Notes: generated from the letters alone by a model not told the origin. A stretch of DNA of 64,000 nt from a virus (IMGVR_UViG_3300042402_002792), one strand, 5' to 3'. Positions 1,020-49,665 are shown, numbered from the stretch's first letter. Numbers and translations are program-made.

Positions 1020-1096
1020 GCCCTTATACGCTAATTGGTAACGCGAATGGATTTAAAATCCGTTGTCTGTAGGTTCGAATCCAACTAAGGGTACCA
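1020..1096 (+). tRNA. Class-I (short variable loop) tRNA with anticodon TAA, formally Leu(UUA)
   Basis: Acceptor GCCCTTA/TAAGGGT. D-arm CGCT-AATTGGTAA-CGCG. Anticodon stem ATGGA/TCCGT with loop TTTAAAA. Variable region is 5 nt. T-loop TTCGAAT. CCA is encoded. Confidence 0.45.
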
Positions 1097-1097
1097 T

Positions 1098-1172
1098 ACC
1101 GCTTTCGTATAATGGATAATACAGCAGGCTTCTACCCTGCGAATATGGGTTCGATTCCTCTAGGCGGTGCCA
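1098..1172 (+). tRNA. tRNA-Arg (anticodon TCT)
   Basis: Acceptor ACCGCTT/AGGCGGT. D-arm GTAT..ATAC. Anticodon stem GCAGG/CCTGC with loop CTTCTAC. T-loop TTCGATT. CCA is encoded. Confidence 0.6.
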
Positions 1173-1265
1173 TATAAGCAAACACATTAGTGAGAGAACG
1201 GTCATAGACCTTAGGGCTTAGCCTGCGGCATCGTTATTTACGGTGGCTAGTGTGTTTACTTATAT
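1173..1265 (+). ncRNA. Roughly 93-nt structured element: a long hairpin closed by a 15/16-bp terminal helix, lying between two tRNAs
   Basis: TAAGCAAACACATTAG (1175-1190) is complementary to CTAGTGTGTTTACTTA (1246-1261). The interior forms sub-hairpins (GGTC-ATA-GACC, AACG..CGTT). No open reading frame is present. Confidence 0.3.
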
Positions 1266-1342
1266 GCCCCTTTACGCTAATTGGTAGTGCGGATTCTCTC
1301 AAAAGGAGTTGGCTGTCTGTTCGAATCAGACAAGGGGTACCA
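1266..1342 (+). tRNA. Class-I tRNA with anticodon CAA, formally Leu(UUG). Paralog of the tRNA at 1020-1096
   Basis: Acceptor GCCCCTT/AAGGGGT. D-arm CGCT-AATTGGTAG-TGCG. Anticodon stem ATTCT/GGAGT with loop CTCAAAA. Perfect T-arm GTCTG-TTCGAAT-CAGAC. CCA is encoded. Confidence 0.45.
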
Positions 1343-1344
1343 AA

Positions 1345-1418
1345 GCTCTTATAGGTAAGTGGTATACCAGCACTTTGGTAAAGTGCAATCACAAGTTCAA
1401 TTCTTGTTAAGAGCACCA
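1345..1418 (+). tRNA. tRNA-Thr (anticodon GGT)
   Basis: Perfect acceptor GCTCTTA/TAAGAGC. D-arm GGTA-AGTGGTA-TACC. Anticodon stem GCACT/AGTGC with loop TTGGTAA. T-arm ACAAG-TTCAATT-CTTGT. CCA is encoded. Confidence 0.65.
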
Positions 1419-1430
1419 GGTAAATATTGT

Positions 1431-2096
1431 ATGATTTTTTTACCAGCATTTTGTGTAGATGATTTTTACAGCAATCCAGACGCAGTAAGAGAGTTTGCTC
1501 TAAAACAAGAATTTAGGTCATCTGAAGGTCGTTGGCCTGGAAAGAGAACTAGAGACTTATCCGAAATTGATCCTGCGTTTCACGAACAATTCGCTAAAAA
1601 AGTTTTTTCTTTATTTCTTGAAGATGTAAACGATGTTACCAGATATAATTTGAAAACCAGTTTTCAAATGGTACCTACTCTAGATCAAGATCCAAACTCG
1701 CCTAAAAATCAAGGATGGATTCATTTTGATGATCAAACTGTTTTCGCAGGCATTGTATATCTTTCACCTGATGCAAGACCAGAAAACGGAACTTCTATCT
1801 TTAAGCTGATTAACGAATCTACGTTAGATCACGATTCTACATGTAAACAAGATTTTTATACAGGTAAAGTCTCAGAAAATTATGACGAAACAATATCACG
1901 CCATAATGGATCGTATCTAGAAACAATTAGTTTTAATAATTTATATAATCGAATGATCTGCTTTGATCGCAGTCAACCCCATGGTGTAAAATCTTTTTAC
2001 ACTACAGGTGAGACTAGATTAACACAAGTGTTCTTTCTTATGGATTTCGAAACAACAGTAACACCCCCTATTATTAGGCATAAAAAATATTTATGA
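1431..2096 (+). CDS. 2OG-Fe(II) oxygenase superfamily-like protein, first of a tandem paralog family
   Basis: ORF 1359-2096 trimmed to the first ATG downstream of tRNA-Thr. An HFD motif and a distal FDRSQPHGV (H plus RxS) match the 2-His-1-carboxylate plus 2OG-binding pattern. Confidence 0.5.
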   Translation: MIFLPAFCVDDFYSNPDAVREFALKQEFRSSEGRWPGKRTRDLSEIDPAFHEQFAKKVFSLFLEDVNDVTRYNLKTSFQMVPTLDQDPNSPKNQGWIHFDDQTVFAGIVYLSPDARPENGTSIFKLINESTLDHDSTCKQDFYTGKVSENYDETISRHNGSYLETISFNNLYNRMICFDRSQPHGVKSFYTTGETRLTQVFFLMDFETTVTPPIIRHKKYL

Positions 2097-2656
2097 ACAC
2101 ATCAATTTTTAAAGATTACACTGTAATCGACAACGCATTAGAAAATCCATATGACTTAGTTAATCAAGCTAACTCAATAAATTACTACACTAATGAAACA
2201 AATTCATTTGAAGACTTTAATTTAAGTGTACAAAATAAACCACCTGGAATTTGGAGAGGTTACAGATCAGAAGAGCTTGATAAACTAGTTCCGGAGTTAT
2301 TTGCAAATATTACTAATCAAATTATTAGTAAGGTTTTAAATATACAGCAGTTTCAATATGTAGTAAGCTCTTATTTGCATAGAGGCGATCAATCTATTGA
2401 TAGTCAAGATTTATGGCATGTAGATAAAAATGTAGCATTTGCATTTGTACTATACCTAAATCATAATCCTCCGGCAAAAACGGGTACTTTATTAAAAATA
2501 AATCAAGAAATTGTTCCAATTGAGAATAAATTTAATAGACTCGTAGTGTATAATAGCTCTATAGAACACAGAGTTGAAAACTTTTTTGGAGATACATTTG
2601 AGTCTAGTAGACTAACACTTACAGGATTTATTCATAAGCTAGCAATTAGCTGTTGA
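2093..2656 (+). CDS. 2OG-Fe(II) oxygenase-like paralog
   Basis: 187-aa ORF with start/stop overlap to its neighbours. Motifs WHVDKN (HxD) and distal EHRV. Confidence 0.5.
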   Translation: MNTSIFKDYTVIDNALENPYDLVNQANSINYYTNETNSFEDFNLSVQNKPPGIWRGYRSEELDKLVPELFANITNQIISKVLNIQQFQYVVSSYLHRGDQSIDSQDLWHVDKNVAFAFVLYLNHNPPAKTGTLLKINQEIVPIENKFNRLVVYNSSIEHRVENFFGDTFESSRLTLTGFIHKLAISC

Positions 2657-3273
2657 CAATGTTTATTTTAGATAACTTTATTGATAGATACCACGCTGAT
2701 AAAATTGAACAAGAATTTTCTAGTAACAAATTTCCGTGGTATTATCTAGAACAATCATTGCCATTGCCAGCAGTAACTAGTTTTGTAAATACGTCAGTTT
2801 TTAGACATTCGTTTATTGTTGAAAATAAATCAAATTCGGATTATGTAAGTCTGTTAACTCCGTTCTTAGAAAAAATAACTAATATGTTTTCCAGTAAGAT
2901 TGAAGTAGCTTCAATTACTGCAAACTTCTTGACCCCAAATCAAGATCTTATTGGAAAACATATTATACCTCATTATGATGTAAAATATGAAAATAAAGTT
3001 TACAACGAATTTCAAACATACACAGGATTATATTATGTAAATGATAGTGATGGCGAAACTATCTTGTTTAACGAAAAACAAGATGATGAACCTATACTAT
3101 CATTTACTGAATTAGGTAGAGTAATTCCAAAGAAAAATAGATTTGTATTTTGGAACTCTCGGCACTATCATAGTGCTCCAGCATCAGCAACAAGGAATAG
3201 ATTCGTAATTAATTTTAATTTTATAGTTGAAAAAGGAAGTGTGGCAGAGCCCGGTTTATTGCAGCAGTCTTGA
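2653..3273 (+). CDS. 2OG-Fe(II) oxygenase-like paralog (PhyH-like pattern)
   Basis: 206 aa. Motifs HYD...HYHS...RxR. The 3' end overlaps the tRNA-Ser gene by about 39 nt. Confidence 0.5.
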   Translation: MTMFILDNFIDRYHADKIEQEFSSNKFPWYYLEQSLPLPAVTSFVNTSVFRHSFIVENKSNSDYVSLLTPFLEKITNMFSSKIEVASITANFLTPNQDLIGKHIIPHYDVKYENKVYNEFQTYTGLYYVNDSDGETILFNEKQDDEPILSFTELGRVIPKKNRFVFWNSRHYHSAPASATRNRFVINFNFIVEKGSVAEPGLLQQS

Positions 3274-3326
3274 AAACTGCCGGCTCCGAAAGGGGTCCGT
3301 GAGTTCGAATCTCACCGCTTCCACCA
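3235..3326 (+). tRNA. tRNA-Ser (anticodon TGA), class II
   Basis: Acceptor GGAAGTG/CGCTTCC. Anticodon stem GCAGT/ACTGC with loop CTTGAAA. 18-nt variable arm. T-arm GTGAG-TTCGAAT-CTCAC. CCA is encoded. Confidence 0.65.
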
Positions 3327-3332
3327 AATTAT

Positions 3333-3407
3333 CGCGGGGTACGTCAGTGGCAGACTATCGGGCTCATAACCCGAAAGACGGAGGTTCGAGTCCTTCCCCC
3401 GCAACCA
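3333..3407 (+). tRNA. Initiator tRNA-fMet (anticodon CAT)
   Basis: C1·A72 mismatch. Anticodon stem TCGGG/CCCGA (three G·C pairs next to the loop) with loop CTCATAA. T-arm GGAGG-TTCGAGT-CCTTC. CCA is encoded. Confidence 0.65.
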
Positions 3408-3412
3408 AATAT

Positions 3413-3511
3413 GCCGCCATAGCTTAATGGTAAAGAAGCGAGCTTATACCTCGCCAAAGCACAGGCCAGATAAGCCTGAGTGTGCAGGTTCGAGTCCTGC
3501 TGGCGGCACCA
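3413..3511 (+). tRNA. Oversized (99-nt) tRNA-like gene. The candidate anticodon arm is GCGAG-CTTATAC-CTCGC (anticodon TAT) and is followed by an unusually long (~29-nt) extra arm
   Basis: Perfect acceptor GCCGCCA/TGGCGGC and T-arm GCAGG-TTCGAGT-CCTGC. CCA is encoded. The interior contains a second hairpin, CAGGC-CAGATAA-GCCTG. Identity could not be resolved by eye. Confidence 0.35.
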
Positions 3512-3519
3512 AAATTTAT

Positions 3520-3597
3520 GTAGGGGTGGCAGAGAGGCCCAATGCAGTGGATTGCAAATCCGCAAAACCGTCGGTTCGAATCCGACTCCCTACTCCA
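3520..3597 (+). tRNA. tRNA-Cys (anticodon GCA)
   Basis: Acceptor GTAGGGG/TCCCTAC with discriminator U. Anticodon stem GTGGA/TCCGC with loop TTGCAAA. T-arm GTCGG-TTCGAAT-CCGAC. CCA is encoded. Confidence 0.55.
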
Positions 3598-3620
3598 TAA
3601 TAAAATATAAGTAGTATATT

Positions 3621-3697
3621 GCCCCGATGACGGAATTGGTATACGTGTTGGTCTTAGAAGCCAAATTTTGCGAGTTCGAGTCTCGCTTGGGGCACCA
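3621..3697 (+). tRNA. Class-I tRNA with anticodon TAG, formally Leu(CUA)
   Basis: Acceptor GCCCCGA/TTGGGGC. Anticodon stem TTGGT/GCCAA with loop CTTAGAA. Variable region is 5 nt. T-arm GCGAG-TTCGAGT-CTCGC. CCA is encoded. Confidence 0.45.
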
Positions 3698-3703
3698 AAT
3701 AAT

Positions 3704-3777
3704 GCGGGATTAGTTTAATGGTCAAACGAAACCTTGCCAAGGTTTAGTCAGGAGTTCGATTCTCCTATCCCGCTCCA
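3704..3777 (+). tRNA. tRNA-Gly (anticodon GCC)
   Basis: Perfect acceptor GCGGGAT/ATCCCGC. D-arm GTTT..AAAC. Anticodon stem AAACC/GGTTT with loop TTGCCAA. T-arm AGGAG-TTCGATT-CTCCT. CCA is encoded. Confidence 0.65.
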
Positions 3778-3792
3778 AACATGTAGGTTGCT

Positions 3793-5241
3793 ATGTATAA
3801 AATTGTTGTTGTTGGTGGAGGAACAGCTGGATTAATGGCTGCATCGTTTTTAAAATCTACATATGGTCCTCACGTAGATGTAACTGTAATCTATGATCAT
3901 AAAAATCCAGGAATAGGTGTTGGAGAAAGTTTAACTCCTATAATTTATGAATACTTAACTGCTGTCGGAATTACTAGAGAAGAACTTATTTTAAATGTTA
4001 ATGCTACAGTTAAATTAGGTTTAAAATTTAAGAACTGGTTAAATGACGGCGGGTACTACTGGCATCCATTTGTGCAAAAAGACTCACCTAGAAATGATAT
4101 CGATGCCGCATTTGATCTAGCACATAACACTTATGACTCAGATAATGGCTATAGTAGTTATTTTTTAGAATCAAATCGTATACCTAAACAATCCGGTACA
4201 CAGGCATTACATATTGATTCTGTTCTTTTTGCTAGATATATAGAACACAAATTTAAAGATAGAATTAATATTGTCGATGGTATTGTAGATGAAGTAAATG
4301 TAAGCGAACACAATCATATTACTCACGTTAGATTAACAGACGGTCGAGTATTTGACGGTAACTTTTTTGTTGATGCTAGCGGGATGCAGTATGCATTATT
4401 TAAACACTTAAATGTAAAATGGGTTGACAAATCAGACTGGCTACCAATTGATCGATGTATCCCAAATCCAGTTCCGTGGACATTTACAACACAGCCTACT
4501 TATACTACATCCGAAGCTAGCAAAGACGGATGGATATTACAAGTTCCGTTGAGTAATCGTTGGGGTACTGGGTACCTTTACTCTAGTCAATTTCAACAAG
4601 ATAACCGTGCTCACGATACATTTGATCAGTTTTTAAAAAATAACTACGGCACAGAACTTACAAGCTCAAGAGTAATTAAATTTAAAAGTGGCTTTTGGGA
4701 AGATCAATGGGTTGGTAATTGTATTGCTGTAGGATTGTCAAGTGGGTTTACCGAACCGTTAGAAGCTACAAACATACACCATGTTGTTTATCAATTATGG
4801 ATGTTTACTGAAATGTTTAATTTAGAAATACTTAATTACGATAGAAAAAAATATAATAAAATGATGACCAGTTTTTATAACAATGTCTATTTGTATCTTA
4901 GATTTTGTTATACTACAGGAAGAACCGATAGTGAATTTTGGAAATACATGACAGCAAACGTTCCCGAATCAGTTCGAGACTTAGAAGAAAAAATCTCACG
5001 TAACTCAATGAATACCTACTCATTACCAGGTACTGTGTTTTCGTATCATAACTTTACAAAAGTAGCTCACGGGTTAGGAAAAATTAATAGAATGAGCTAC
5101 CTAAACGAGCTCAGATTACGAAATATGATTGAACAAGCAAGGATTAAAGCAACTAAACTCAAAATTGAAAAATTAGTTGACTATGAGACTAGCATTGATC
5201 ATTTAGAATATATAAAATCGGTCCTTAACTCAACTGGATAG
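3793..5241 (+). CDS. FAD-dependent (tryptophan-type) halogenase-like protein
   Basis: 482 aa. N-terminal GxGxxG FAD-binding fold (VVVGGGTAGLMAASF) and a W-x-W/L-x-IP-like motif (DGWILQVP), giving an overall flavin-halogenase architecture. The 3' end overlaps the next tRNA. Confidence 0.55.
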   Translation: MYKIVVVGGGTAGLMAASFLKSTYGPHVDVTVIYDHKNPGIGVGESLTPIIYEYLTAVGITREELILNVNATVKLGLKFKNWLNDGGYYWHPFVQKDSPRNDIDAAFDLAHNTYDSDNGYSSYFLESNRIPKQSGTQALHIDSVLFARYIEHKFKDRINIVDGIVDEVNVSEHNHITHVRLTDGRVFDGNFFVDASGMQYALFKHLNVKWVDKSDWLPIDRCIPNPVPWTFTTQPTYTTSEASKDGWILQVPLSNRWGTGYLYSSQFQQDNRAHDTFDQFLKNNYGTELTSSRVIKFKSGFWEDQWVGNCIAVGLSSGFTEPLEATNIHHVVYQLWMFTEMFNLEILNYDRKKYNKMMTSFYNNVYLYLRFCYTTGRTDSEFWKYMTANVPESVRDLEEKISRNSMNTYSLPGTVFSYHNFTKVAHGLGKINRMSYLNELRLRNMIEQARIKATKLKIEKLVDYETSIDHLEYIKSVLNSTG

Positions 5242-5295
5242 AGTGCAAGTCTTCGAAACTTGAAGTTAGGGGTTCGAGTCCTCTAGGGCCGGCCA
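5219..5295 (+). tRNA. tRNA-Arg (anticodon TCG)
   Basis: Acceptor CGGTCCT/AGGGCCG. D-arm ACTC..GAGT. Anticodon stem CAAGT/ACTTG with loop CTTCGAA. T-arm AGGGG-TTCGAGT-CCTCT. CCA is encoded. The 5' end overlaps the last 23 nt of the halogenase CDS. Confidence 0.55.
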
Positions 5296-5298
5296 GTT

Positions 5299-5373
5299 GC
5301 CGCTGTAGTTCAATGGATAGAACAAGTTCCTCCTAAGAATTAGATGTAGGTTCGATTCCTGCCAGAGGCGCCA
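5299..5373 (+). tRNA. tRNA-Arg (anticodon CCT)
   Basis: Acceptor GCCGCTG/CAGAGGC with one mismatch. D-arm GTTC..GAAC. Anticodon stem AGTTC/GAATT with loop CTCCTAA. T-arm GTAGG-TTCGATT-CCTGC. CCA is encoded. Confidence 0.55.
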
Positions 5374-5379
5374 AACATG

Positions 5380-5408
5380 TTGACAACGAATCTGCTATTA
5401 TGTATAAT
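5380..5408 (+). promoter_or_regulatory. Perfect sigma70 consensus promoter TTGACA-N17-TATAAT. The predicted start coincides with the 5' end of the tRNA-like gene at 5415
   Basis: TTGACA at 5380-5385, a 17-nt spacer, TATAAT at 5403-5408. Confidence 0.55.
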
Positions 5409-5414
5409 TACATT

Positions 5415-5523
5415 GTAGCCGTAACGCAAATAGGCAAAGCTCCAATAGCAACATTGTATGTTGTGAGGGACGGGGTCGAATATAGTTCGGTAACCCATGG
5501 AGGTTCGAAGCCTCCCGGCTACA
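5415..5523 (+). tRNA. Oversized (109-nt) tRNA-like gene of unresolved identity. A candidate anticodon arm GCAAC-ATTGTAT-GTTGT would give anticodon TGT
   Basis: Perfect acceptor GTAGCCG/CGGCTAC and perfect T-arm GGAGG-TTCGAAG-CCTCC. No CCA is encoded. A long internal hairpin GGGTCGAA-TATAG-TTCGGTAACCC sits in the variable region. The D-region is irregular. Confidence 0.3.
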
Positions 5524-5536
5524 TAGGACATTAAAA

Positions 5537-6133
5537 ATGATTATAAGAAATGTATTTGATACCCCAGTTGTAATACATCATTGTCATGACGCAGAAATAT
5601 TTGCTAACAAATCTATCAGAGATAGTATAGAGTTTGTGTTTGGTCTAGAAGAAATTAGAGAAACTATTGATCCATCTCAAGTAGGAAATGCTTTTACAAC
5701 TTGCAATCATTTTGATAAATTTCCGTTGATCTCTATGCCCGGAACTGAAAACTTATCAGAATGGGTAGCTAGGAAAATATTAGAAAGCAGTAAACACTTT
5801 GGATTTGAAAATTCTACCAAAATAGAATTTTTGAGAACATGGATAAATCTTTACTTCTATGGTTGTGAAGGAACCTGCCATCATCATCCAACAGACATTG
5901 ACGGTGTGGGAATTTTTTATATAAAGGTTCCTTCTAATAGTAGCCAATTAGTTTTTATCCGTGACGGCATCGATGGTACTAAGATTAATCAATATCCACC
6001 AGAACAACTTGCGTTTCAACCTGTTGTACAAGGAGACCTGATTATTCACAATCCTAAGGTGCCACATGCTATTTCTCAACATAAAGCTCACGATTCACGA
6101 ATATGTTTTATATACGAGTTTAAATATCATTAA
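5537..6133 (+). CDS. Hypothetical protein, possibly a divergent 2OG oxygenase-like paralog
   Basis: 198-aa ORF. His-rich motifs (CHHHPTD ... VPHAISQH). An AAGGA-type ribosome-binding site is absent but the gene packing is tight. Confidence 0.4.
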   Translation: MIIRNVFDTPVVIHHCHDAEIFANKSIRDSIEFVFGLEEIRETIDPSQVGNAFTTCNHFDKFPLISMPGTENLSEWVARKILESSKHFGFENSTKIEFLRTWINLYFYGCEGTCHHHPTDIDGVGIFYIKVPSNSSQLVFIRDGIDGTKINQYPPEQLAFQPVVQGDLIIHNPKVPHAISQHKAHDSRICFIYEFKYH

Positions 6134-6222
6134 GGAGAGTTGGCAGAGTGGTAATGCACCGGATTGCTAATCCGCCGTTCATGAAAGTGGGCGCACAGGT
6201 TCGAGTCCTGTACTCTCCGCCA
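6134..6222 (+). tRNA. tRNA-Ser (anticodon GCT), class II
   Basis: Perfect acceptor GGAGAGT/ACTCTCC. Anticodon loop TTGCTAA. Long variable arm. T-arm ACAGG-TTCGAGT-CCTGT. CCA is encoded. Confidence 0.6.
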
Positions 6223-6233
6223 TTATTTGTTAT

Positions 6234-6815
6234 ATGAAAATATTTGATAAAGTTTTAGGTCAAAATGCTTTACAATCTTTACAAAAAGAGATTGTGCATA
6301 GCACAGCATTTCCATGGTATAAAACACTAACAACTTACGATTTGAAAGAACCGAATAGCATCAATGACTATAGTTGGTTTCACTTAGTATCAAAAGAAGG
6401 CGAAGTAGTTTCACAAGTCTATTCGTTGCTGTATCCTATGTTGCTATGTGCATTTGATAATATTAACGAACCTGTTAAAGATTTTATAAGATTACGGTTA
6501 GCATTGCAAACACCGATAGGTCAAAAGTTTGTAAATGATGCTCACACAGACTACGGCTTTGAACACAAGACAGCATTATTATATTTGAACACTTGCGATG
6601 GTAACACAATCATCTACAATGAAGCTTATGATCACAAATCGCAAATAAGTCCACTAGATTATTTAAATAACAACTTAAAAAATAATTTAACTGTATTAAG
6701 TGAAGTTGAACCAGTAGAAAATAGACTAGTGCTGTTTGATGGTTTACGTTATCATTCAAGTCAGCGTCCTATTAACTTTCCTTACAGAATTATTTTAAAC
6801 ATAAATTATAATTAA
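6234..6815 (+). CDS. 2OG-Fe(II) oxygenase-like paralog
   Basis: 193 aa. Motifs AHTD (HxD) and distal LRYHSSQR. Confidence 0.5.
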   Translation: MKIFDKVLGQNALQSLQKEIVHSTAFPWYKTLTTYDLKEPNSINDYSWFHLVSKEGEVVSQVYSLLYPMLLCAFDNINEPVKDFIRLRLALQTPIGQKFVNDAHTDYGFEHKTALLYLNTCDGNTIIYNEAYDHKSQISPLDYLNNNLKNNLTVLSEVEPVENRLVLFDGLRYHSSQRPINFPYRIILNINYN

Positions 6816-6823
6816 TATTTTAT

Positions 6824-6899
6824 TCCCTGATAGCTCAGTCGGTAGAGCGACGGACTGTTAATCCGCAGGTCCCTGGTTCGAGCCCAGGTCGGGGAGCCA
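6824..6899 (+). tRNA. tRNA-Asn (anticodon GTT)
   Basis: Acceptor TCCCTGA/TCGGGGA. D-arm GCTC-AGTCGGTA-GAGC. Anticodon loop CTGTTAA. T-arm CCTGG-TTCGAGC-CCAGG. CCA is encoded. Confidence 0.65.
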
Positions 6900-6914
6900 A
6901 ACAAAGAGGAAATT

Positions 6915-7232
6915 ATGAGCAAAGGTAGTAGACCTCGTCCATATAGTGTTAGTCAAAATACGTTTGCTAGCAACTACGATGCAATTTTTCGCAAGCCCGA
7001 TCCTAGGGTTCGAGAAGAATCTATTCAAGAAGACGAAGCATTTAAAGAATTAGAAAAAAGGAATACAATGAGTCCATCAGTAGAACAAATGAAACAAGGT
7101 ACGTGCGGGTGCGGCCGTAGCCCTACAGGAAACTGTTGTGGGTGGCATGCGCTAACAGAAGAACAATATCAGCAACGTAAAGAACTTTACGAAACTGGTA
7201 AAGCTGATTTGCAAGGTCGCGAAGTTAAGTAA
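6915..7232 (+). CDS. Hypothetical Cys-rich protein
   Basis: 105-aa ORF. Ribosome-binding site AAGAGGA. Cys cluster CGCGRSPTGNCCGWH. Confidence 0.45.
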   Translation: MSKGSRPRPYSVSQNTFASNYDAIFRKPDPRVREESIQEDEAFKELEKRNTMSPSVEQMKQGTCGCGRSPTGNCCGWHALTEEQYQQRKELYETGKADLQGREVK

Positions 7233-7235
7233 TCT

Positions 7236-7865
7236 TTGATGTTAAGCACAGTCCTTGATAAGATTAACACTGACGCTGTTCATTATCAACAGCAGGCCGT
7301 AAGCACTGACATTTTTTCTTGGGAAGAATTAGAACGCTTGTTAAATCTTAGGCCATTTGTTAATCATAAAAGATTTCACATACTTAATGATAAAAACTAC
7401 ACTTGGCATAATCCAGGATGGGCTAGTGACAATGGGTATCCTCCGTCTTTGATACAAGAAGAAATCAAAAAGTATGTTTGCTATTTGAGTGACTGTTCTA
7501 AAGTAAACAAATCAATTAATGAGTTGTGTAAACTGATTGAAAATCAGACAGGCAGCGAAGTTGATGCTCATGTTTATTTTTCGTTTTTCTATCAAGATCA
7601 AGACATAGAAAAATATATACACAAAGATAAATCTAATAATTTAATAATTCAAATTGATGGAGAGACTAACTTTAAGGTATTCGGGACTGATCGAAACAGC
7701 GATATTATCTTAGATGTAATTATGCAACCTGGGGATATGCTTTACATACCTGCAGGATATTGGCACGGTGCGCTAAGTCTGAGTCGTAGATTAAGCTTGA
7801 GTATTCCTATTAGTCCTCATCGAGTTGAAATACAAGAAGATAGACACTGGATACAATTAAAATGA
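7236..7865 (+). CDS. Cupin/JmjC-like protein
   Basis: 209 aa. A motif GDMLYIPAGYWHG typical of cupin/JmjC beta-barrel hydroxylases. Confidence 0.45.
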   Translation: MMLSTVLDKINTDAVHYQQQAVSTDIFSWEELERLLNLRPFVNHKRFHILNDKNYTWHNPGWASDNGYPPSLIQEEIKKYVCYLSDCSKVNKSINELCKLIENQTGSEVDAHVYFSFFYQDQDIEKYIHKDKSNNLIIQIDGETNFKVFGTDRNSDIILDVIMQPGDMLYIPAGYWHGALSLSRRLSLSIPISPHRVEIQEDRHWIQLK

Positions 7866-8479
7866 AATACGCTTACTTTAACCCTACTATTGTAGCAATG
7901 GACGATGTACCTGATGATATTTTTCAATGGTGTGTAAATGCTGTTGAGCAAGCACATCTCAGAGAAGATCTCAATGATGCTGGTAATCCAGTATTAAGTA
8001 TTCGAGGCGGCCAACAAGTACAAATACTGCCTAACGAAATGGGTATAGATATAGAGCCGTTGGCTAGATACATTGAAGATATATGCACTCAATATATTGA
8101 TTCTGTACGTGCAAGTGCCGGCATTACCGATGAATTGCCTGTTAAACCTGTATTAGTTAGTGCATGGACTTTAAAACAAGGTCCAGGAGACTATCAGGCA
8201 CTACATAGTCATGAAGCACACTTGAGCGGTAATATCTACATACAAGTTCCAGAACTTGATCTAGATTCTACTAATACAGATTCGTGTATTGAATTTAGAT
8301 TGCCTACTGTACGTAACCCGGCAAGATTTGTATTCACAGACACTTGGCGGTTCAAACCTGAACGTGCTAAAATAATAATGTTTCCTAGTTATCTTCCACA
8401 CACAGTTTATCCGTGGACGGGTAAAGGGCATAGAATTAGTTTAGCATGGGATGCCAAATTAATTGACAAGAGTATCTAA
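7862..8479 (+). CDS. 2OG-Fe(II) oxygenase-like protein
   Basis: 205 aa. Motifs HSHEAH ... PHTVYP ... RISLAWD (distal His plus RxS). Confidence 0.45.
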   Translation: MKYAYFNPTIVAMDDVPDDIFQWCVNAVEQAHLREDLNDAGNPVLSIRGGQQVQILPNEMGIDIEPLARYIEDICTQYIDSVRASAGITDELPVKPVLVSAWTLKQGPGDYQALHSHEAHLSGNIYIQVPELDLDSTNTDSCIEFRLPTVRNPARFVFTDTWRFKPERAKIIMFPSYLPHTVYPWTGKGHRISLAWDAKLIDKSI

Positions 8480-8491
8480 AAGATATATAAT
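8463..8491 (+). promoter_or_regulatory. Perfect sigma70 consensus promoter TTGACA-N17-TATAAT, placed upstream of tRNA-Thr, the structured RNA and tRNA-Gly
   Basis: TTGACA at 8463-8468, 17-nt spacer, TATAAT at 8486-8491. It is followed by AGACACA, as in the promoter at 10240. Confidence 0.55.
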
Positions 8492-8524
8492 AGACACAAG
8501 TTAGAAATTGTTCTTTAAAAATTT

Positions 8525-8599
8525 GCCGGATTAGCTCAGTGGTAGAGCAACCGCCTTGTAAGCGGTAGGTCGTCAGTTCAATCCCGACATCCGGCACCA
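8525..8599 (+). tRNA. tRNA-Thr (anticodon TGT)
   Basis: Perfect acceptor GCCGGAT/ATCCGGC. D-arm GCTC-AGTGGTA-GAGC. Anticodon stem ACCGC/GCGGT with loop CTTGTAA. T-loop TTCAATC. CCA is encoded. Confidence 0.65.
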
Positions 8600-8902
8600 A
8601 GAAAAACCCCGGTTTACTCTTTTACGTTATATAAAGAGCGTCCCTGTAACGATAGACCAGGGGGTACACTAGGACCTGACCTTACAGTCCCCGTTGGGGG
8701 ATACTGAAAACTGCCTAGGGTGAGGAACGCTAACCTCTTCCAAAAGAAGAAATACGTGGACAGAGTAACCGCTCAGTCTAGGGCTCATGTGGTGTGAGTA
8801 GCTAGACACTTTAATCAAATACATTTGGCTTAACTATAAGTTAAGTTGCAAGGACGGCACACCATCCGCAATGAAAAAGTGACAAGTGTGTTTGATTAAA
8901 GT
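8600..8902 (+). ncRNA. Highly structured ~300-nt non-coding RNA candidate lying between tRNA-Thr and tRNA-Gly
   Basis: No open reading frame. A 21-bp long-range helix (8802-8822 with 8879-8903). A perfect hairpin CTTAACT-ATA-AGTTAAG. Nested hairpins GTCTAGGGCTCA..TGAGTAGCTAGAC. CCCTG..CAGGG and CTCTTT..AAAGAG stems. This resembles the stable RNAs embedded in the T4 tRNA cluster. Confidence 0.35.
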
Positions 8903-8976
8903 GCGGGGTTAGTTTAATGGCAAAACAGCAGATTTCCAATCTTCGGTCGAGAGTTCGATTCTCTCACTCCGCTCCA
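8903..8976 (+). tRNA. tRNA-Gly (anticodon TCC)
   Basis: Acceptor GCGGGGT/ACTCCGC. D-arm GTTT..AAAC. Anticodon loop TTTCCAA. T-arm GAGAG-TTCGATT-CTCTC. CCA is encoded. Confidence 0.6.
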
Positions 8977-8987
8977 AAATATAAATT

Positions 8988-9620
8988 ATGGAATTAATAA
9001 CACATACAGCACCAAAACAAGGTATATCGTTTTTGGTAATTAAAAATTTATACTCTCAAAATGAGTTATTTTTAATCCAAAAAGAGTTAGACTTTCTTTG
9101 GAGTAGTCTTGCTTTTTCAAGAGATGAGGACTATCTAAATGTTGCAAAATTAGATGACGGATCAATATTAGGTAAAAGAAGTGGTGTTTGGTTAGATTTT
9201 TTCTATAACAAACGAGAAAGTTCTAGTATATTACGACTTAATCGAAAACCATTTTCAGACGATACAATAAGAAATACATTTGCTAATTTGAATCCATATC
9301 ATTTTCATTATCTTAAATTAGATTATGATAATACTTTACTTCAGTATTATGAAAATTCGGATTATTATAAACCGCACACTGATCATTCTATGTTTAGTTT
9401 AGTGACATGGTTTCATAAAGATCCAAAAAAATTTACTGGAGGAAATTTTAAGTTTACAGATTTAGACTATACAATTGAAATTGAAAATAATATGTGTGTA
9501 ATCTTTCCAAGTTTCTTGTGGCACGAAGTAGAAGAAATTAAAATAACAGAAACTAGTAAATATGAGCCAAATGGAAGATTTTCAATGACTCAATTTGTAG
9601 TGTATAATCCAACAAAATAG
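8988..9620 (+). CDS. 2OG-Fe(II) oxygenase (prolyl-4-hydroxylase-like pattern)
   Basis: 210 aa. Motifs HTD ... WHEV ... RFS (HxD...H...RxS). Confidence 0.55.
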   Translation: MELITHTAPKQGISFLVIKNLYSQNELFLIQKELDFLWSSLAFSRDEDYLNVAKLDDGSILGKRSGVWLDFFYNKRESSSILRLNRKPFSDDTIRNTFANLNPYHFHYLKLDYDNTLLQYYENSDYYKPHTDHSMFSLVTWFHKDPKKFTGGNFKFTDLDYTIEIENNMCVIFPSFLWHEVEEIKITETSKYEPNGRFSMTQFVVYNPTK

Positions 9621-10041: not shown

Positions 10042-10242
10042 ATGAAAACGCAAGTTAAAACAAGACCCGTTCGCCTACGTAATATTCGGAATAATCAAGA
10101 AGTTATCTGCGATGATTATACCAATGTTCGGACTATCGACGGGCAGGACTTCGTTGAAGTCCATTTTGAAAATCAAACTCGTAAATTTTGGCTTAACAAA
10201 GCACCCTTACAAAAGGTAAAAGAGAAGTCCAAAAAGAGTTGA
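10042..10242 (+). CDS. Small basic hypothetical protein of 66 aa
   Basis: AGGAG ribosome-binding site 7 nt upstream of the ATG. Lys/Arg-rich. Confidence 0.5.
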   Translation: MKTQVKTRPVRLRNIRNNQEVICDDYTNVRTIDGQDFVEVHFENQTRKFWLNKAPLQKVKEKSKKS

Positions 10243-10268
10243 CAAAGATTAAGATCTATACTATAATA
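10240..10268 (+). promoter_or_regulatory. Perfect sigma70 consensus promoter TTGACA-N17-TATAAT driving a ~500-nt non-coding leader or RNA upstream of the TROVE-like gene
   Basis: TTGACA at 10240-10245, 17-nt spacer, TATAAT at 10263-10268. Confidence 0.55.
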
Positions 10269-10781: not shown

Positions 10782-12191
10782 ATGAACGCATTTGTAAACG
10801 CAATCGCAAATCAAGAAGCCCGTACCGCAAACGGTATGAAGGCACGTAAGTCAACAGCTAAGGCTACCGTTGACCTGTTCTACAACATCGGTGCAAGCCG
10901 TGGTAAGGACATCACAGGCGACTTCACAGCCGCTTATGTGGAAAACGCAGACGTAGCATTACGCATCGCACAATGGGCACGTGATGTCCGAGGTGGTGCA
11001 GGTGAACGTCAACTGTTCCGTGATATTCTAGTTCATCTAGAAAAGCGTGACCCAGACGCCGCTTTGGCTCTTCTAAAGAAGATTCCAGAAGTTGGACGTT
11101 GGGATGACATCTTTGTCTTCACCAACCCTGTTCTGAAGTCAGCCGCTTATACCATGTTGGGCGATGCCCTTCGTGCTAATAACGGTCTGGCTGCAAAGTG
11201 GACCCCCCGTAAGGGTCAAATTGCCGCTGAGATTCGTGCCTTCTTTGGCATGACTCCGAAGCAATATCGTAAGAGCCTTGTTGCTCTTACCAAGGTGGTT
11301 GAAACCCAGATGTGTGCTAACGACTGGGATAACATCAACTTTAGCCATGTTCCTTCTGTGGCTGCTCGCAACTACAAGAAGGCATTCAACCGTCACACTC
11401 CTCTGTTCGCAGAGTATGTGGCCAAGTTGGTGGCAGGGGATAAGACTGTTAAGGTTAACGCCAGCGCAATCTTCCCACATGATGTCCTAAAGGGCATCGC
11501 ACACAGCTACACTAAGCTGAACAAGACAGAAACCGACCATGTGATTGCACAATGGGACGCTCTGCCTAACTATGTAGGTGACGCAAGTATCCTACCTCTA
11601 GTTGACGTTTCTGGTTCGATGACAACATCTGTTCCAGGTTCAACTGTTCGCTGTTTAGATGTAGCAGTCGGTCTAGGCTTGTATCTTGCAGATAAGAACA
11701 AGGGTGTGTTCAAGGACACGTTCTTGACTTTCTCAAGCAAGCCACAACTGGCTACTCTAAAGGGTAACATTGTTGCAAAGGTTGACCAAATGTCAAGTAG
11801 CAACTGGGAAATGAGCACTAACTTGCATGCCGCTATGGACAAGATCCTAAGCGTTGCAGTTAAGGGTTCAGTACCGGCTAGTGACATGCCAAAGATGTTA
11901 CTCATCTTGAGTGACATGCAGTTTAACCAATGTGCTCGTTTCGACGACTCAGCAATGCAAATGATTGAACGAAAGTTCGCAGATGCAGGTTACACTGTTC
12001 CGCAAATTGTTTTCTGGAACCTAAACAGTTCTGGCAACGTGCCTGTAAAGGCAGACAAGAGTGGCGCGGCACTGGTAAGTGGTTTTAGTCCAAGCATCAT
12101 GACAGCTCTGTTGTCAGCGGATATGGACCAATTCACTCCAGAAGGTATCATGATGAAGACTGTAATGGTTCCTCGTTATGACCTTAACTAA
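10782..12191 (+). CDS. Ro60/TROVE-like or DUF2828-like protein with a C-terminal vWA (MIDAS) domain
   Basis: 469 aa. MIDAS motif DxSxS (LVDVSGSMTT) within a vWA-like C-terminal half, and a helical N-terminal half. Noticeably GC-richer than its neighbours. AGGTAAT ribosome-binding site. Confidence 0.5.
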   Translation: MNAFVNAIANQEARTANGMKARKSTAKATVDLFYNIGASRGKDITGDFTAAYVENADVALRIAQWARDVRGGAGERQLFRDILVHLEKRDPDAALALLKKIPEVGRWDDIFVFTNPVLKSAAYTMLGDALRANNGLAAKWTPRKGQIAAEIRAFFGMTPKQYRKSLVALTKVVETQMCANDWDNINFSHVPSVAARNYKKAFNRHTPLFAEYVAKLVAGDKTVKVNASAIFPHDVLKGIAHSYTKLNKTETDHVIAQWDALPNYVGDASILPLVDVSGSMTTSVPGSTVRCLDVAVGLGLYLADKNKGVFKDTFLTFSSKPQLATLKGNIVAKVDQMSSSNWEMSTNLHAAMDKILSVAVKGSVPASDMPKMLLILSDMQFNQCARFDDSAMQMIERKFADAGYTVPQIVFWNLNSSGNVPVKADKSGAALVSGFSPSIMTALLSADMDQFTPEGIMMKTVMVPRYDLN

Positions 12192-37972: not shown

Positions 37973-38047
37973 AAGTCTAATTTTGTAATCATTTTGTAAT
38001 CTCTTTGTGTTTAAATAATTATATCACTAACACAAGGAGACTTACAG

Positions 38048-39048
38048 TGAAAAAACTATTTGCTATTCTATTAGCCTCGGTGGCTATGTCAGTTCAAGCT
38101 GATATCACAGGCGCAGGCGCAACGTTCCCGTTTCCAATCTATGCCAAATGGGCTGAAGGATATAAGAAAGCCACAGGTAACAGTTTAAACTATCAAAGTA
38201 TTGGTAGTTCTGGTGGTATTAGACAAATCAACGCAAAGACCGTCGACTTTGGTGCAACGGACGCTCCAGTAAGTGGAGAGAACTTAGACAAGATGGGACA
38301 AGTACAGTTTCCAGCAATCATCGGCGGAACAGTGCCAGTTGTCAACTTAGATGGTATCAAGCCCGGCGAACTAAAGATCACTGGACCTGTTATGGCTGAA
38401 GTATTCATGGGCAACATCACTAAGTGGAATGATCCTAAGTTAGTAGCATTGAATCCAGGCAAAACATTACCTAACACAGAAATCACTGTTGTCCATCGTG
38501 CTGATGGATCAGGAACAACATTTAACTGGACAGACTATCTTGCTACAGTAAGTCCTGAGTGGCTAGCTAAAGTAGGTCGTGGTGCCGCAGTTAAATGGCC
38601 CTCACCAAATAGTGTAGGTGGCAAAGGCAATGAAGGTGTTGCTGCCAACGTGAATCGTATCAAAGGCTCAATTGGTTATGTAGAGTATGCTTATGTTAAG
38701 AAGAACAACATGGTGTTTCTACAACTACAAAACAAGTCAGGTAAGTTTGTTAGTCCAGATGACCTAACATTTGCTGCCGCAGCCGATGGTGCTGATTGGT
38801 TTAGTGTCCCCGGTATGGGATTAAGCATTGTGGATCAGAAGAATCCTAATGCATGGCCAGTAAGTTCAGCAAGTTTTATCATTATGTACAAAGAGCCAAA
38901 AAACAAAGCCACTAGCGATGAAGTATTAAAGTTCTTTGATTGGGCATTTAAGAATGGTAAAAAGGATGCCATAGATTTAGACTATGTTCCATTACCGGAT
39001 GCACTAACAAAGCAAATACGTGAACGTGTTTGGACACAAATTAAATAA
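38048..39048 (+). CDS. pstS: Periplasmic phosphate-binding protein PstS
   Basis: The ORF track's 38005 start was trimmed to GTG 38048 (AAGGAG ribosome-binding site 7 nt upstream). Signal peptide MKKLFAILLASVAMSVQA. Conserved PstS motifs (GATFPFPIYAKWA, SGGI, GATDAP, GSIGYVEYAY). GC-richer than neighbours. Confidence 0.8.
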
Positions 39049-48483: not shown

Positions 48484-49665
48484 ATGGCAACTAAACTCAA
48501 AAAAGAATCTATTGCACTTCGTGAAAAAGCCAAACGTGACTACAGTCCAAGTTGGGTTGGTTGCGAGTCTTGGGATGAGAATAAGTTCCTGCGTTTCTTT
48601 CACAGTTCTATGCAATACTATCGTATGGAATCTACGGGCAAAGAACTCAAAAGCAAAGTTATTGACTGGATGGGCAAGAATGGTTACGACAAAAAGACTA
48701 TTGCTAGTTTTAAGAAAACTAAAGACAATCGTTGCTCTCTGACTGTAGGTTCTATTGCTGCCTGTTTGCTTAAAGGCATGCCTAGTACACGCCCTGACTT
48801 TAATAACGGTCGTGACACTGCCACTTGGTTAGGTGCAGAGATTGCTAAGATTATTGATGAAGGTAAGAACGACATTGATGAAGAAGCAGTTAAGGCAGCT
48901 GAAGATGCAAAGCCTGCCGTCTACGTTCCTAGTATCCAAGAACGTGTTCGAGAAGCAGCCTATCTAATGACTGAAGAAATTGAAGATGCTTATCAAAGTT
49001 TCAGTCAAGATCCCGAAAACTTTGATCCCAAGGCATTTAAGATTCTTAACTTGCTCAAAGGTAAGGGAGCTAAGGCAGCTCACGCACGTATTATTCGTGA
49101 TTACTATGCTCGCGATCTTGCAGAGCTTAATGAACTTGCTAGCGGCAATGCTGACGAACAGTTGAAAGAAGGTTACAAGCATCGTAGCCGTAAGCAGATC
49201 AAGGCGTTTATTGCATTCTTGCAGGAAATTGAAAGTGCCTGCAACATGCTGATGCAAGAAGCTAAAGTTAACAAAAAGCCTCGCAAAACTAAAGCAGTTA
49301 GCAAGGACAAGCTGGTAGCAAAGCTCAAGTACAAGAAGACTGACGAGCCGCTGAAGCTGGTTAGTGTTAACCCTGCAGACATTGTTGGTGCTCAAGAGCT
49401 GTGGATTTACAATAGTAAAACTCGTAAATTGGGCAAGTATGTAGCAGAAGAATTTAAAGAGTTGGGTATTAAAGGCACTACAATTACCGGTTTTAGTGAA
49501 ATGAAATCTGTACAAAAGACATTACGTAAGCCTGCAGATCAACTTAAAGAGTTCAAAGCCGCAGGCAAAGTAGCACTACGCAAGTTTTTAGAAGACATTA
49601 ATGCTGTAGATACTAAAATGAATGGTCGCATTAATGAAGAAACTATTCTACTTAAAGTAGCATAA
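48484..49665 (+). CDS. Hypothetical protein
   Basis: 393 aa. Good ribosome-binding site. GC-richer than neighbours. Confidence 0.5.
   Translation: MATKLKKESIALREKAKRDYSPSWVGCESWDENKFLRFFHSSMQYYRMESTGKELKSKVIDWMGKNGYDKKTIASFKKTKDNRCSLTVGSIAACLLKGMPSTRPDFNNGRDTATWLGAEIAKIIDEGKNDIDEEAVKAAEDAKPAVYVPSIQERVREAAYLMTEEIEDAYQSFSQDPENFDPKAFKILNLLKGKGAKAAHARIIRDYYARDLAELNELASGNADEQLKEGYKHRSRKQIKAFIAFLQEIESACNMLMQEAKVNKKPRKTKAVSKDKLVAKLKYKKTDEPLKLVSVNPADIVGAQELWIYNSKTRKLGKYVAEEFKELGIKGTTITGFSEMKSVQKTLRKPADQLKEFKAAGKVALRKFLEDINAVDTKMNGRINEETILLKVA

Follow-up and report, generated by a model that had tools for sequence, protein, structure and literature searches.

The three short leucine tRNA genes found close to the start of the window, that is, the whole 64,000-nucleotide stretch of viral DNA analyzed here (IMGVR_UViG_3300042402_002792), are very probably functional phage type I tRNA-Leu genes, which would have arisen from class II tRNA-Leu when the hairpin of the variable arm was lost. 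This reading rests on the structure of the genes, on conservation and covariation, on the identity nucleotides, and on both homology and interchange with class II genes. In the textbook view, every leucine tRNA bears a long extra arm. The genes of the window are real but not unique, short leucine tRNAs being common in phages.

All three genes lie on the plus strand, with the anticodons UAA (positions 1020 to 1096), CAA (1266 to 1342), and UAG (3621 to 3697), each being 77 nt long with an encoded CCA and reported by ARAGORN as tRNA-Leu (taa, caa, and tag, respectively). The Rfam tRNA model (RF00005) returned the same intervals with 52.9 bits (E-value 7e-10), 49.9 bits (4.7e-09), and 60.8 bits (4.8e-12), respectively, all above the gathering score of 29 bits and full-length over model positions 1 to 71. 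The UAA tRNA is laid out as GCCCUUA UA CGCU AAUUGGUAA CGCG A AUGGA UUUAAAA UCCGU UGUCU GUAGG UUCGAAU CCAAC UAAGGGU A CCA, with a G1-U72 pair and A73; the CAA tRNA as GCCCCUU UA CGCU AAUUGGUAG UGCG G AUUCU CUCAAAA GGAGU UGGCU GUCUG UUCGAAU CAGAC AAGGGGU A CCA; and the UAG tRNA as GCCCCGA UG ACGG AAUUGGUAU ACGU G UUGGU CUUAGAA GCCAA AUUUU GCGAG UUCGAGU CUCGC UUGGGGC A CCA. Thus, the anticodon loops are of 7 nt (UUUAAAA, CUCAAAA, and CUUAGAA) and the variable loops of 5 nt (UGUCU, UGGCU, and AUUUU), and on both ARAGORN and Rfam agree with the earlier note, which had read three genes with these anticodons and short loops. A shifted anticodon loop or a hidden variable arm, named there as findings that would speak against that reading, were both looked for and rejected, as the two programs place the loops alike and a length of 77 nt leaves no space for an arm. 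Class II is delimited by a variable arm of more than 10 nt, outside of which all three fall; a leucine anticodon, a Leu-type body, and a variable loop within the range of 4 to 6 nt place them in type I tRNA-Leu.

Regarding the relationship among the three genes, the UAA and CAA tRNAs are identical at 57 of 77 positions and have the 5' strand of the D-arm and the D-loop (CGCU-AAUUGGUA) in common, which supports the paralogy proposed for them earlier; however, the acceptor stems, also described as shared, differ at three of the seven pairs. The UAG tRNA belongs to a lineage other than this pair, with the D-arm ACGG-AAUUGGUAU-ACGU.

The identity elements that the earlier note had singled out, A73 and the tertiary elements of the D-loop, are present in the three tRNAs. 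All of them carry A73, U8-A14, A15-U48, C2-G71, and G18G19 together with A20a in the D-loop AAUUGGUA, this set being of the E. coli type. The leucine identity elements listed for E. coli come with the report that the variable arm is dispensable for the E. coli LeuRS, whereas SerRS requires it (PMC9976931), and C2-G71 is an antideterminant against SerRS. Position 73 was left free in the search pattern used to gather relatives, and A73 is nonetheless found in the three tRNAs of the window, in 104 of 104 viral relatives, and in 118 of 118 genomic ones. Moreover, alignment with the E. coli class II genes leuZ, leuX, and leuW, taken by coordinate from the E. coli genome, shows a deletion of 8 to 10 nt that affects the arm only (a 10-nt gap between leuZ and the UAA tRNA), with G1, C2, U8, A14, A15, G18, G19, U48, and A73 invariant. 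The D-loop is identical to that of leuW, and the D stem is of 3 bp in the three tRNAs, as is typical for class II. The UAG tRNA has A37 and A38 where leuW has G37 and U38. With two of the tRNAs as queries, blastn found nothing in 5,426 E. coli genomes, the query being short and the database large.

For the isotype comparison, the anticodon was masked and the variable region trimmed, as whole-length profiles had penalized the arm deletion. The short-Leu profile, whose family was gathered partly through the same D-loop motif, scored 42.0 for the UAA tRNA (next isotype, 31.4), 40.1 for the CAA tRNA (next, 24.3), and 56.9 for the UAG tRNA, for which class II Leu followed with 44.5 and the next isotype with 25.5. 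As a control, the 21 non-Leu tRNAs of the window that were scored (of 22) each match their own isotype, and the three Leu genes match the short-Leu profile. The class II Leu profile is weak for the other two, being outside the top five for the UAA tRNA and reaching 9.3 for the CAA tRNA, so that in both cases the leucine assignment rests on the identity nucleotides and the short-Leu family. The T loop of one tRNA-His in this comparison is atypical.

The phage is low in GC and of the jumbo type, and the genes belong to an array of at least 26 tRNA genes with a common orientation. In the first 10.5 kb, neither the 25 tRNAs of ARAGORN nor the 26 Rfam tRNA matches that pass the gathering score include a class II tRNA-Leu, in accordance with its absence from the window as noted before; however, the window starts within the array and, therefore, a class II tRNA-Leu may still lie upstream. 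Several related phages do possess one. Among the leucine codons of the window ORFs, UUA accounts for 42%, UUG for 13%, and CUA for 17%, and the anticodons UAA, CAA, and UAG together can decode these dominant leucine codons of the phage. When the first 6 kb of the window were compared with the phage collection by megablast, two tRNA-Ser matches were the sole result, with no close relative, and a distant protein search pointed to jumbo phages, both PA5oct-like ones and those of Sinorhizobium. The DUF2828 protein gave no match in a sequence search of the PDB. Near-identical copies of the CAA tRNA are present in two related viral contigs (L040 and L053), the UAG tRNA is matched by 66 isolated phage records, with the listed alignments running without a gap across the variable region, and the short Leu tRNA genes are kept in syntenic relatives.

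A pattern scan of viral contigs, fixing only the D-loop, the frame of the anticodon loop, and the T-loop, revealed at least 104 distinct well-formed type I Leu tRNAs. Although the pattern permitted Phe anticodons, none of the 104 carries one. U8 and U48, neither of which was fixed, are each present in 104 of 104; 101 have a D stem of 3 bp and a 13:22 mismatch, and 90 have an encoded CCA. Also, the stems covary, with 94.7% of positions paired against 41 to 47% with shifted partners and at least four pair types at most stem positions. The statement that phage tRNA-Leu is normally class II holds only in part, since a variable loop of 5 to 6 nt is found in about 48 of the 126 tRNA-Leu-like matches, about a third, that one slice of the viral collection gave for the D-loop/T-loop motif. 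In the same loci, tRNA-Ser is long in 117 of 119 cases and tRNA-Tyr in 46 of 49, whereas 188 tRNA-Leu are short and 60 long. Arm loss is specific to leucine in these loci, in keeping with a requirement for the arm in SerRS but not in the E. coli LeuRS (PMC9976931).

Related phages have either a 77-nt or an 83- to 87-nt gene for one Leu anticodon. The UAG tRNA and a class II tRNA-Leu(UAG) of 85 nt from the contig of a related phage (L081) do not differ in acceptor stem, T arm, or anticodon loop; the variable region is AUUUU in the former and CGCCGAAAGGCAU in the latter. A comparison with leuZ, leuX, leuW, and the 85-nt tRNA-Leu(UAG) of phage T5 likewise reveals the same anticodons, A73, D-loop, G18G19 register, A15-U48, 3-bp D stem, and T loop, the G1-U72 pair of the UAA species being also common to both classes; in contrast, the variable arm is of 13 to 15 nt in class II and of 5 nt in the window.

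One of the closest known systems is found in Streptomyces coelicolor, whose type I tRNA-Leu(CAA) was leucylated in experiments by the LeuRS of that species (NAR 2019, PMC6614811); it has a counterpart in Bifidobacteriaceae, where a type I tRNA-Leu(CAA) is chromosomal. These genes resemble those of the window in the 5-nt variable loop, the D-loop AAUUGGUAG, the 3-bp D stem, the 13:22 mismatch, and A73. Nonetheless, the actinobacterial gene is single, chromosomal, without an encoded CCA, and restricted to the CAA anticodon, with the D-arm TCCC-AATTGGTAG-AGGA and the variable loop RCAGT, whereas the window genes are phage-borne, encode CCA, have three different anticodons, and fall into two further lineages, marked by the D-arms CGCU..UGCG and ACGG..ACGU. 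The nearest sequence to the UAG gene is a class II tRNA-Leu from a phage, and this suggests an arm loss independent of that in the actinobacterial lineage. Animal mitochondrial tRNA-Leu is also type I, with identity depending mainly on A73 and A14 (PMC9976931), but it is organellar, relaxed in structure, and served by a dedicated mitochondrial LeuRS, and no sequence kinship is expected.

Short tRNA-Leu genes are already annotated in isolated phages, namely Escherichia phage 4MG, Shigella phage Sf14, Bacillus phage P59, Streptomyces phage Coruscant, and Xanthomonas phage X1, and were also matched in Salmonella PVP-SE1-like, Cronobacter, Proteus, and Vibrio phages. Those of the isolated phages are of 75 to 79 nt with the same architecture and lie in large arrays beside class II tRNA-Ser or tRNA-Tyr. 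Phage 4MG, which infects E. coli K-12, has Leu UAA (78 nt) and UAG (77 nt), and Sf14 has the same trio as the window (TAG, 77 nt; CAA, 78 nt; TAA, 79 nt), for which tRNAscan-SE isotype models rank Leu top in all three cases (PMC12482277). The missing arm goes unremarked in the phage records and in the Sf14 tRNA paper, where the word "variable" is absent (PMC12482277). Our literature search, of incomplete coverage, found no description of phage type I tRNA-Leu, although an earlier one is possible, and the only described bacterial exception that it found is the one Streptomyces tRNA.

If the three genes are functional as proposed, they would be transcribed together with their array neighbors, and the transcripts presumably processed to the CCA end that is already encoded; leucine would then be attached by the host LeuRS, and the charged tRNAs used in translation. 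The E. coli LeuRS, however, is reported to be unable to leucylate the S. coelicolor type I tRNA-Leu(CAA), its leucine-specific domain reportedly favoring a large variable region (PMC6614811), and hence charging by a proteobacterial LeuRS is not assured. In S. coelicolor itself, A73 does not serve as an identity element, and a specialized LeuRS domain is needed for charging (PMC6614811).

Given that the tRNAs accept leucine, the loss of the arm could moreover have been selected as a counter-defense, allowing escape from effectors that recognize the class II arm, with altered anticodon-loop flanks. This adds to the descent from class II rather than excluding it, and would keep a leucine-decoding pool when the host tRNA-Leu is inactivated, but we consider it rather unlikely. 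In its favor are the high frequency of short Leu tRNAs in phages (about a third of the motif-matched genes) and the known ability of phage tRNAs to stand in for host tRNAs that have been cleaved, and class switching for one anticodon among close phages suggests a recurrent turnover. Among possible effectors, the nucleotidyltransferase toxin MenT3 needs a long variable loop, whose deletion abolishes the long poly-C extension and whose grafting confers it, although this toxin prefers tRNA-Ser over tRNA-Leu (PMC11541572), and for the abortive-infection toxin AbiEii a likely preference for class II tRNAs is reported (bioRxiv 10.64898/2026.01.19.700257). Nonetheless, no defense system is known that targets tRNA-Leu via the arm, the sole characterized bacterial Schlafen cleaves type I tRNAs (PMC13056530), the tRNA-Ser and tRNA-Tyr of the same arrays keep their arms, and the chromosomal tRNA-Leu(CAA) of Bifidobacteriaceae represents an arm loss without phage-defense pressure. 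Bacterial Schlafen and OLD tRNases were also considered as class II-specific threats and discarded, the papers on them showing no such preference.

The remaining alternatives deny either leucine identity or function. Charging with another amino acid in spite of the Leu anticodons, or a role as decoding modifiers, both raised in the earlier note beside unusual Leu isoacceptors, would have a parallel in the nematode class II nev-tRNAs, which are leucylated while carrying Gly or Ile anticodons (PMC3333845, PMC4300185); also, the architecture is atypical for Leu, and the UAA and CAA bodies are weak on the class II Leu profile. However, all the leucine identity nucleotides are present and invariant in the 104 relatives, the antideterminant C2-G71 would keep SerRS away, masking of the anticodon leaves the best non-Leu profile 10 to 30 bits behind, and, for one and the same anticodon, related phages have either a class I or a class II gene. 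The anticodon loops, of 7 nt and with U33 and A37, are normal, all three anticodons read sense codons, and the masked bodies score as Leu; neither a clash between identity and anticodon, nor a stop anticodon, nor an 8-nt loop is found in any of the three. Such recoding is highly improbable, and it is the reading as unusual Leu isoacceptors that gains from the leucine identity set, the class II homology, and the class interchange. Decaying, nonfunctional relics, or an anticodon artifact from a shifted loop, are hardly credible and already contradicted. Phage arrays do include tRNA-like RNAs and pseudogenes, several being annotated in T5, and single-sequence minimum-energy folding gives a near-cloverleaf for the UAA tRNA only, with an alternative pairing of the D arm in the CAA tRNA and a quite different fold, not a cloverleaf, for the UAG tRNA (the folding z-scores, from -1.1 to -2.2, are weak evidence and are not relied on). 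Against this stand the full-length Infernal matches of 50 to 61 bits, loops placed identically by two programs, the encoded CCA, conservation of the genes in syntenic relatives, and strong covariation with invariant tertiary and identity positions in more than 100 relatives.

Taken alone, the window is a modest result, adding three further members to the short-Leu class. This class is, however, common in phages of Proteobacteria, Firmicutes, and Actinobacteria and chromosomal across Bifidobacteriaceae, and some members occur in coliphages, whose host LeuRS reportedly did not charge a type I tRNA-Leu. The class is relevant to the rules by which LeuRS recognizes its tRNAs, to annotation pipelines, to the design of orthogonal tRNAs, and to the question of whether phages evade tRNA-targeting defenses through loss of the arm. 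More speculatively, and with little confidence, phage arrays may re-engineer tRNA architecture, Leu shedding its arm and so hiding from MenT/AbiEii-type or undescribed enzymes. Were this true, short Leu tRNAs would be smaller substrates, independent of the host, and the conflict with the report on the E. coli LeuRS would point to an unrecognized plasticity in LeuRS recognition. The same idea would also cover the tRNA-Ile(UAU) of this array, as a tRNA that gained a long arm with a loop copying the GAU anticodon loop.

Finally, this long-armed tRNA-Ile(UAU) occupies positions 3413 to 3511, and the loop of its extra arm mimics a GAU anticodon loop. Rfam reads positions 3413 to 3508 as a tRNA with a 25-nt insert in the D-loop, an interpretation ruled out by relatives that have a perfect D stem before the UAU arm.

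The first 10 kb of the window holds 25 tRNA genes found by ARAGORN, every one on the + strand, and three of them carry leucine anticodons: tRNA-Leu(UAA) (1020-1096, +), tRNA-Leu(CAA) (1266-1342, +) and tRNA-Leu(UAG) (3621-3697, +), with anticodon loops UUUAAAA, CUCAAAA and CUUAGAA, respectively. The Rfam tRNA covariance model (gathering score: 29) gives full-length matches of 52.9, 49.9 and 60.8 bits and places the loops as ARAGORN does, with 7-nt anticodon loops and 5-nt variable loops in all three. Thus, the short variable loops and Leu anticodons described in an earlier note are borne out by both methods, and the shifted anticodon loop considered there as a refutation is not seen. Also, a hidden variable arm is excluded, since each gene is 77 nt long with the encoded CCA counted in, leaving no space for it. 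The proposed paralogy of the UAA and CAA genes is supported, as they are identical at 57 of 77 positions and have in common the D-arm CGCU-AAUUGGUA; the UAG gene has a different D stem and is identical to them at 42-44 of 77. ARAGORN also calls two tRNA-Ser genes in the window, at 92 and 89 nt, both of them normal class II.

The E. coli leucine identity set consists of A73, U8-A14, A15-U48 and, within the D loop, G18G19 and A20a; neither anticodon nor long arm is required, and C2-G71 wards off SerRS (PMC9976931). Inspection of the Leu identity elements, proposed in the earlier note, shows the whole set in the three window tRNA-Leu bodies. A comparison with the E. coli class II genes leuZ (UAA), leuX (CAA) and leuW (UAG) shows a single clean gap of 8-10 nt in the window genes, at the variable arm, with G1, C2, U8, A14, A15, G18, G19, U48 and A73 invariant. 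Moreover, the D loop of the window genes is exactly that of leuW, and the UAA tRNA has the G1-U72 pair in common with leuZ. Isotype profiles were derived from ~1,800 phage tRNAs after masking of the anticodon and removal of the variable region, and on these the own isotype was matched by 21 of the 21 scorable non-Leu window tRNAs (of 22). For the UAG tRNA, the profile scores are 56.9 (short Leu), 44.5 (class II Leu) and 25.5 (next isotype); for the UAA and CAA tRNAs, short Leu gives 42.0 and 40.1 and the next isotype 31.4 and 24.3. The fit of these two to the class II Leu profile is poor, and their Leu assignment therefore rests more on the identity nucleotides and family membership. The T loop of the tRNA-His (628-702, +; Rfam, 54 bits) is AUCGUUC, which is atypical in lacking the usual UUCRA, and for this reason the T-loop anchor of the profile method did not fit it.

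A pattern with fixed D loop, anticodon-loop frame (anticodon NAR) and T loop at type I spacing recovers at least 104 distinct relatives with good cloverleaves in viral contigs. Among the 104 matches listed, the anticodons are UAG (53), CAA (24), UAA (20), AAG (5) and CAG (2), and none is a Phe anticodon, although GAA and AAA were permitted. A73, U8 and U48, left free by the pattern, are each present in 104/104 of these matches, a D stem of three pairs with a 13:22 mismatch, like that of class II tRNAs, in 101/104, and an encoded CCA in 90/104. Their four stems are 94.7% paired, versus 41-47% with shifted partners, with much compensatory variation. In the loci of the listed matches, ARAGORN finds 188 short and 60 long tRNA-Leu, tRNA-Ser being long in 117/119 and tRNA-Tyr in 46/49. 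Arm loss is thus specific to the single class II isotype whose synthetase can do without the arm.

The IMG/VR contigs L009, L109, L006, L053 and L106 have genes and tRNAs in common with the window, which places it in an uncultured phage group; no close relative was found among 50,697 phage records. Within this group, either class serves a given Leu anticodon. For example, all three genes are short in L109, as in the window, whereas UAA is class II (85 nt) and UAG and CAA are short in L009, and only CAA is short in L106, with UAG and UAA class II. Also, the window UAG tRNA is identical in acceptor stem, T arm and anticodon loop to the 85-nt class II tRNA-Leu(UAG) of the related locus L081, the main change being AUUUU where L081 has CGCCGAAAGGCAU. 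This likeness is direct evidence that the short form derives from a class II tRNA-Leu and takes its place. The CGCU..UGCG lineage of the UAA and CAA genes occurs, among the matches listed, only in contigs with DNA similarity to the window, where it has diversified into all three anticodons.

Bacterial type I tRNA-Leu was described in 2019 (PMC6614811) and many phage records already annotate short tRNA-Leu genes; however, a 2023 identity review has tRNA-Leu long-armed everywhere but in animal mitochondria (PMC9976931), and no paper noting the prevalence of the short form in phages was found in the literature searched on this question. The three window genes are thus additions to a known but under-recognised type. 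In one slice of the viral database, a repeat scan for the same D-loop/T-loop motif with a variable gap gave 41 matches at type I spacing, 7 with one extra base and ~76 at class II spacing, so that about one-third of phage tRNA-Leu genes with this motif are short. Isolates include Escherichia phage 4MG (host E. coli K-12; UAA, 78 nt; UAG, 77 nt), Shigella phage Sf14 (TAG, 77 nt; CAA, 78 nt; TAA, 79 nt; Ser and Tyr alongside are long), Bacillus phage P59 (two genes, 77 nt), Streptomyces phage Coruscant (one, 75 nt) and Xanthomonas phage X1 (CAG, 77 nt, besides a class II UAG). Phage T5 carries a class II tRNA-Leu. The window UAG tRNA is matched by 66 phage records, including Vibrio, Proteus, Cronobacter, Klebsiella, Salmonella and Aeromonas phages, with no gaps across the variable region in the alignments listed. 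Short Leu genes are ordinary within phage tRNA arrays, yet they make the question of LeuRS recognition directly testable.

In bacterial genomes, 70 of the 118 matches listed for the same pattern are single-copy tRNA-Leu(CAA) without encoded CCA, mostly from Bifidobacteriaceae and some from Streptomyces; other matches lie in tRNA arrays of phage-derived appearance. This chromosomal type I tRNA-Leu(CAA) has the D-arm TCCC-AATTGGTAG-AGGA and the variable loop RCAGT. It is conserved across Bifidobacteriaceae, in many Bifidobacterium, Gardnerella and Scardovia genomes (loci L125-L237), and occurs in Streptomyces (L157, L239), which widens the single described Streptomyces case to an entire family.

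The most likely role of the three tRNAs, judged from sequence, is an ordinary one in translation. The genes would be transcribed together with the rest of the array, the transcripts processed to the encoded CCA and leucylated by the host LeuRS via A73 and the D/T corner, and the products would serve translation of the AT-rich phage genome (window G+C, ~37%). In 58 window ORFs, Leu codons are UUA (42%), UUG (13%), CUU (18%), CUA (17%), CUG (6%) and CUC (4%), and thus the three anticodons fit the preferred codons; U34 wobble may extend their reading to all of the box. The main caveat is experimental: the S. coelicolor type I tRNA-Leu(CAA) is not charged by E. coli LeuRS, and the S. coelicolor enzyme requires a particular leucine-specific domain to charge it (PMC6614811). 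Weighing against this, short Leu genes are kept in coliphages and a Shigella phage. Moreover, arm-less minimal E. coli tRNA-Leu variants are still active (PMC9976931, review), and tRNAscan-SE isotype models rank Leu first for the whole Sf14 trio (PMC12482277).

Charging with another amino acid, or the non-standard identity raised in the earlier note, is contradicted by the identity nucleotides, the masked profiles and, for charging, the class exchange in related phages. Likewise, pairing, covariation and conserved positions in the relatives contradict a pseudogene reading, and the same loops in ARAGORN and the Rfam model a mis-set anticodon. Arm loss might conceivably serve counter-defence, given that MenT3 needs a long variable loop (PMC11541572) and that AbiEii, an abortive-infection toxin, reportedly has a likely preference for class II tRNAs (bioRxiv 10.64898/2026.01.19.700257). 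Nonetheless, no known effector picks tRNA-Leu by its arm, tRNA-Ser and tRNA-Tyr retain theirs, and the one characterised bacterial Schlafen cleaves type I tRNAs (PMC13056530).

Regarding the setting of the array, eight small paralogous ORFs of the 2OG-Fe(II) oxygenase/DUF6445/JmjC kind (1431-9620, +) and a tryptophan-halogenase-like flavoprotein (3793-5241, +) are interspersed with the tRNA genes. Three perfect (12/12) sigma-70 consensus promoters (TTGACA-17-TATAAT; 5380-5408, 8463-8491 and 10239-10267, +) lie inside it on the tRNA strand, which suggests that host RNA polymerase would transcribe it in several units. The 132-nt spacer between tRNA-Val and tRNA-His (496-627, +) has a stable fold (z = -2.7; 0/200 shuffles as good) and matches the tRNA-like module of YrlA, a bacterial Y RNA, at a sub-threshold 33.4 bits (gathering score, 69). 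Downstream, ORF 10782-12191 (+) encodes a phrog_850 'RNA-binding protein' with DUF2828 and DUF7788 (E = 3e-140), and in Sf14 a DUF2828 protein directly adjoins the tRNA array; spacer and ORF may be a phage Y-RNA/Ro-like pair. Auxiliary genes unusual for a phage (16300-20165, -; 17130-18614, +; 40623-48426) include six for radical-SAM proteins, of which one has a SPASM domain, three for paralogous fatty-acid desaturases and one for an ATP-grasp enzyme. The set, which also holds a homolog of a phosphate-transporter subunit (38005-39048), hints at a host living in water and at a cluster for peptide modification. For the protein at 48484-49665, the relatives found are all distant (27-34% identity) and belong to jumbo phages infecting Pseudomonas (PA5oct group) or Sinorhizobium.

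A 26th tRNA, missed by ARAGORN, is reported by Rfam at 3413-3508 (59.5 bits). The complete gene (3413-3511, +; 99 nt) folds with acceptor, D, anticodon, variable and T arms and has A73 and CCA. Its anticodon arm, GCGAG-CUUAUAC-CUCGC, carries UAU, which reads the Ile codon AUA (24.5% of window Ile codons), and its 29-nt variable region forms a 5-7 bp hairpin whose loop, CAGAUAA, resembles the tRNA-Ile(GAU) anticodon loop. A strict pattern recovers it from 58 viral contigs, where both hairpins show compensatory changes; its relatives include those in loci L103 1419-1518, L043, L333-L387, L389-L472 and L388 144-234. With the variable region left free, at least 102 distinct long-armed tRNA(UAU) are recovered, whose variable regions measure 21-31 nt except for a single one (full range, 10-31 nt); GAU occupies arm-loop positions 3-5 in 97 of the 99 listed with an arm hairpin and 7-nt loop, on 35 different stems. 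In the loci selected for Leu genes, and therefore unbiased for Ile, tRNA-Ile(UAU) is long in 31/42, with AGAU in the arm wherever the variable region is readable, and tRNA-Ile(GAU) is short in 65/65. An isolate example is the gene annotated tRNA-Ile in Acinetobacter phage vB_AbaS_qsb1 (ARAGORN: tRNA-Ile(tat), 91 nt). No description of such a GAU-loop-armed tRNA-Ile(UAU) was found in the literature searched.

E. coli IleRS charges UAU-anticodon tRNA-Ile ~360-fold worse than the lysidine form (PMC3575796), which leads to the plausible idea that the arm loop may be a decoy GAU anticodon loop that would recruit host IleRS and permit AUA decoding without TilS. Alternatively, the gene could encode a class II tRNA that is mischarged like the nematode nev-tRNA-Ile(UAU); however, the core scores highest on the Ile profile, not Leu. 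Long-armed forms of other normally type I tRNAs (Asn, Lys, Thr, Glu, Pro, Trp and Val) are occasional in phage arrays, at a few percent per isotype, as in loci L247 (3213-3301; tRNA-Asn, 89 nt) and L248 (2238-2323 and 2960-3048) and many IMG/VR loci, and their arm loops, unlike that of tRNA-Ile(UAU), are mostly short and GNRA-like.
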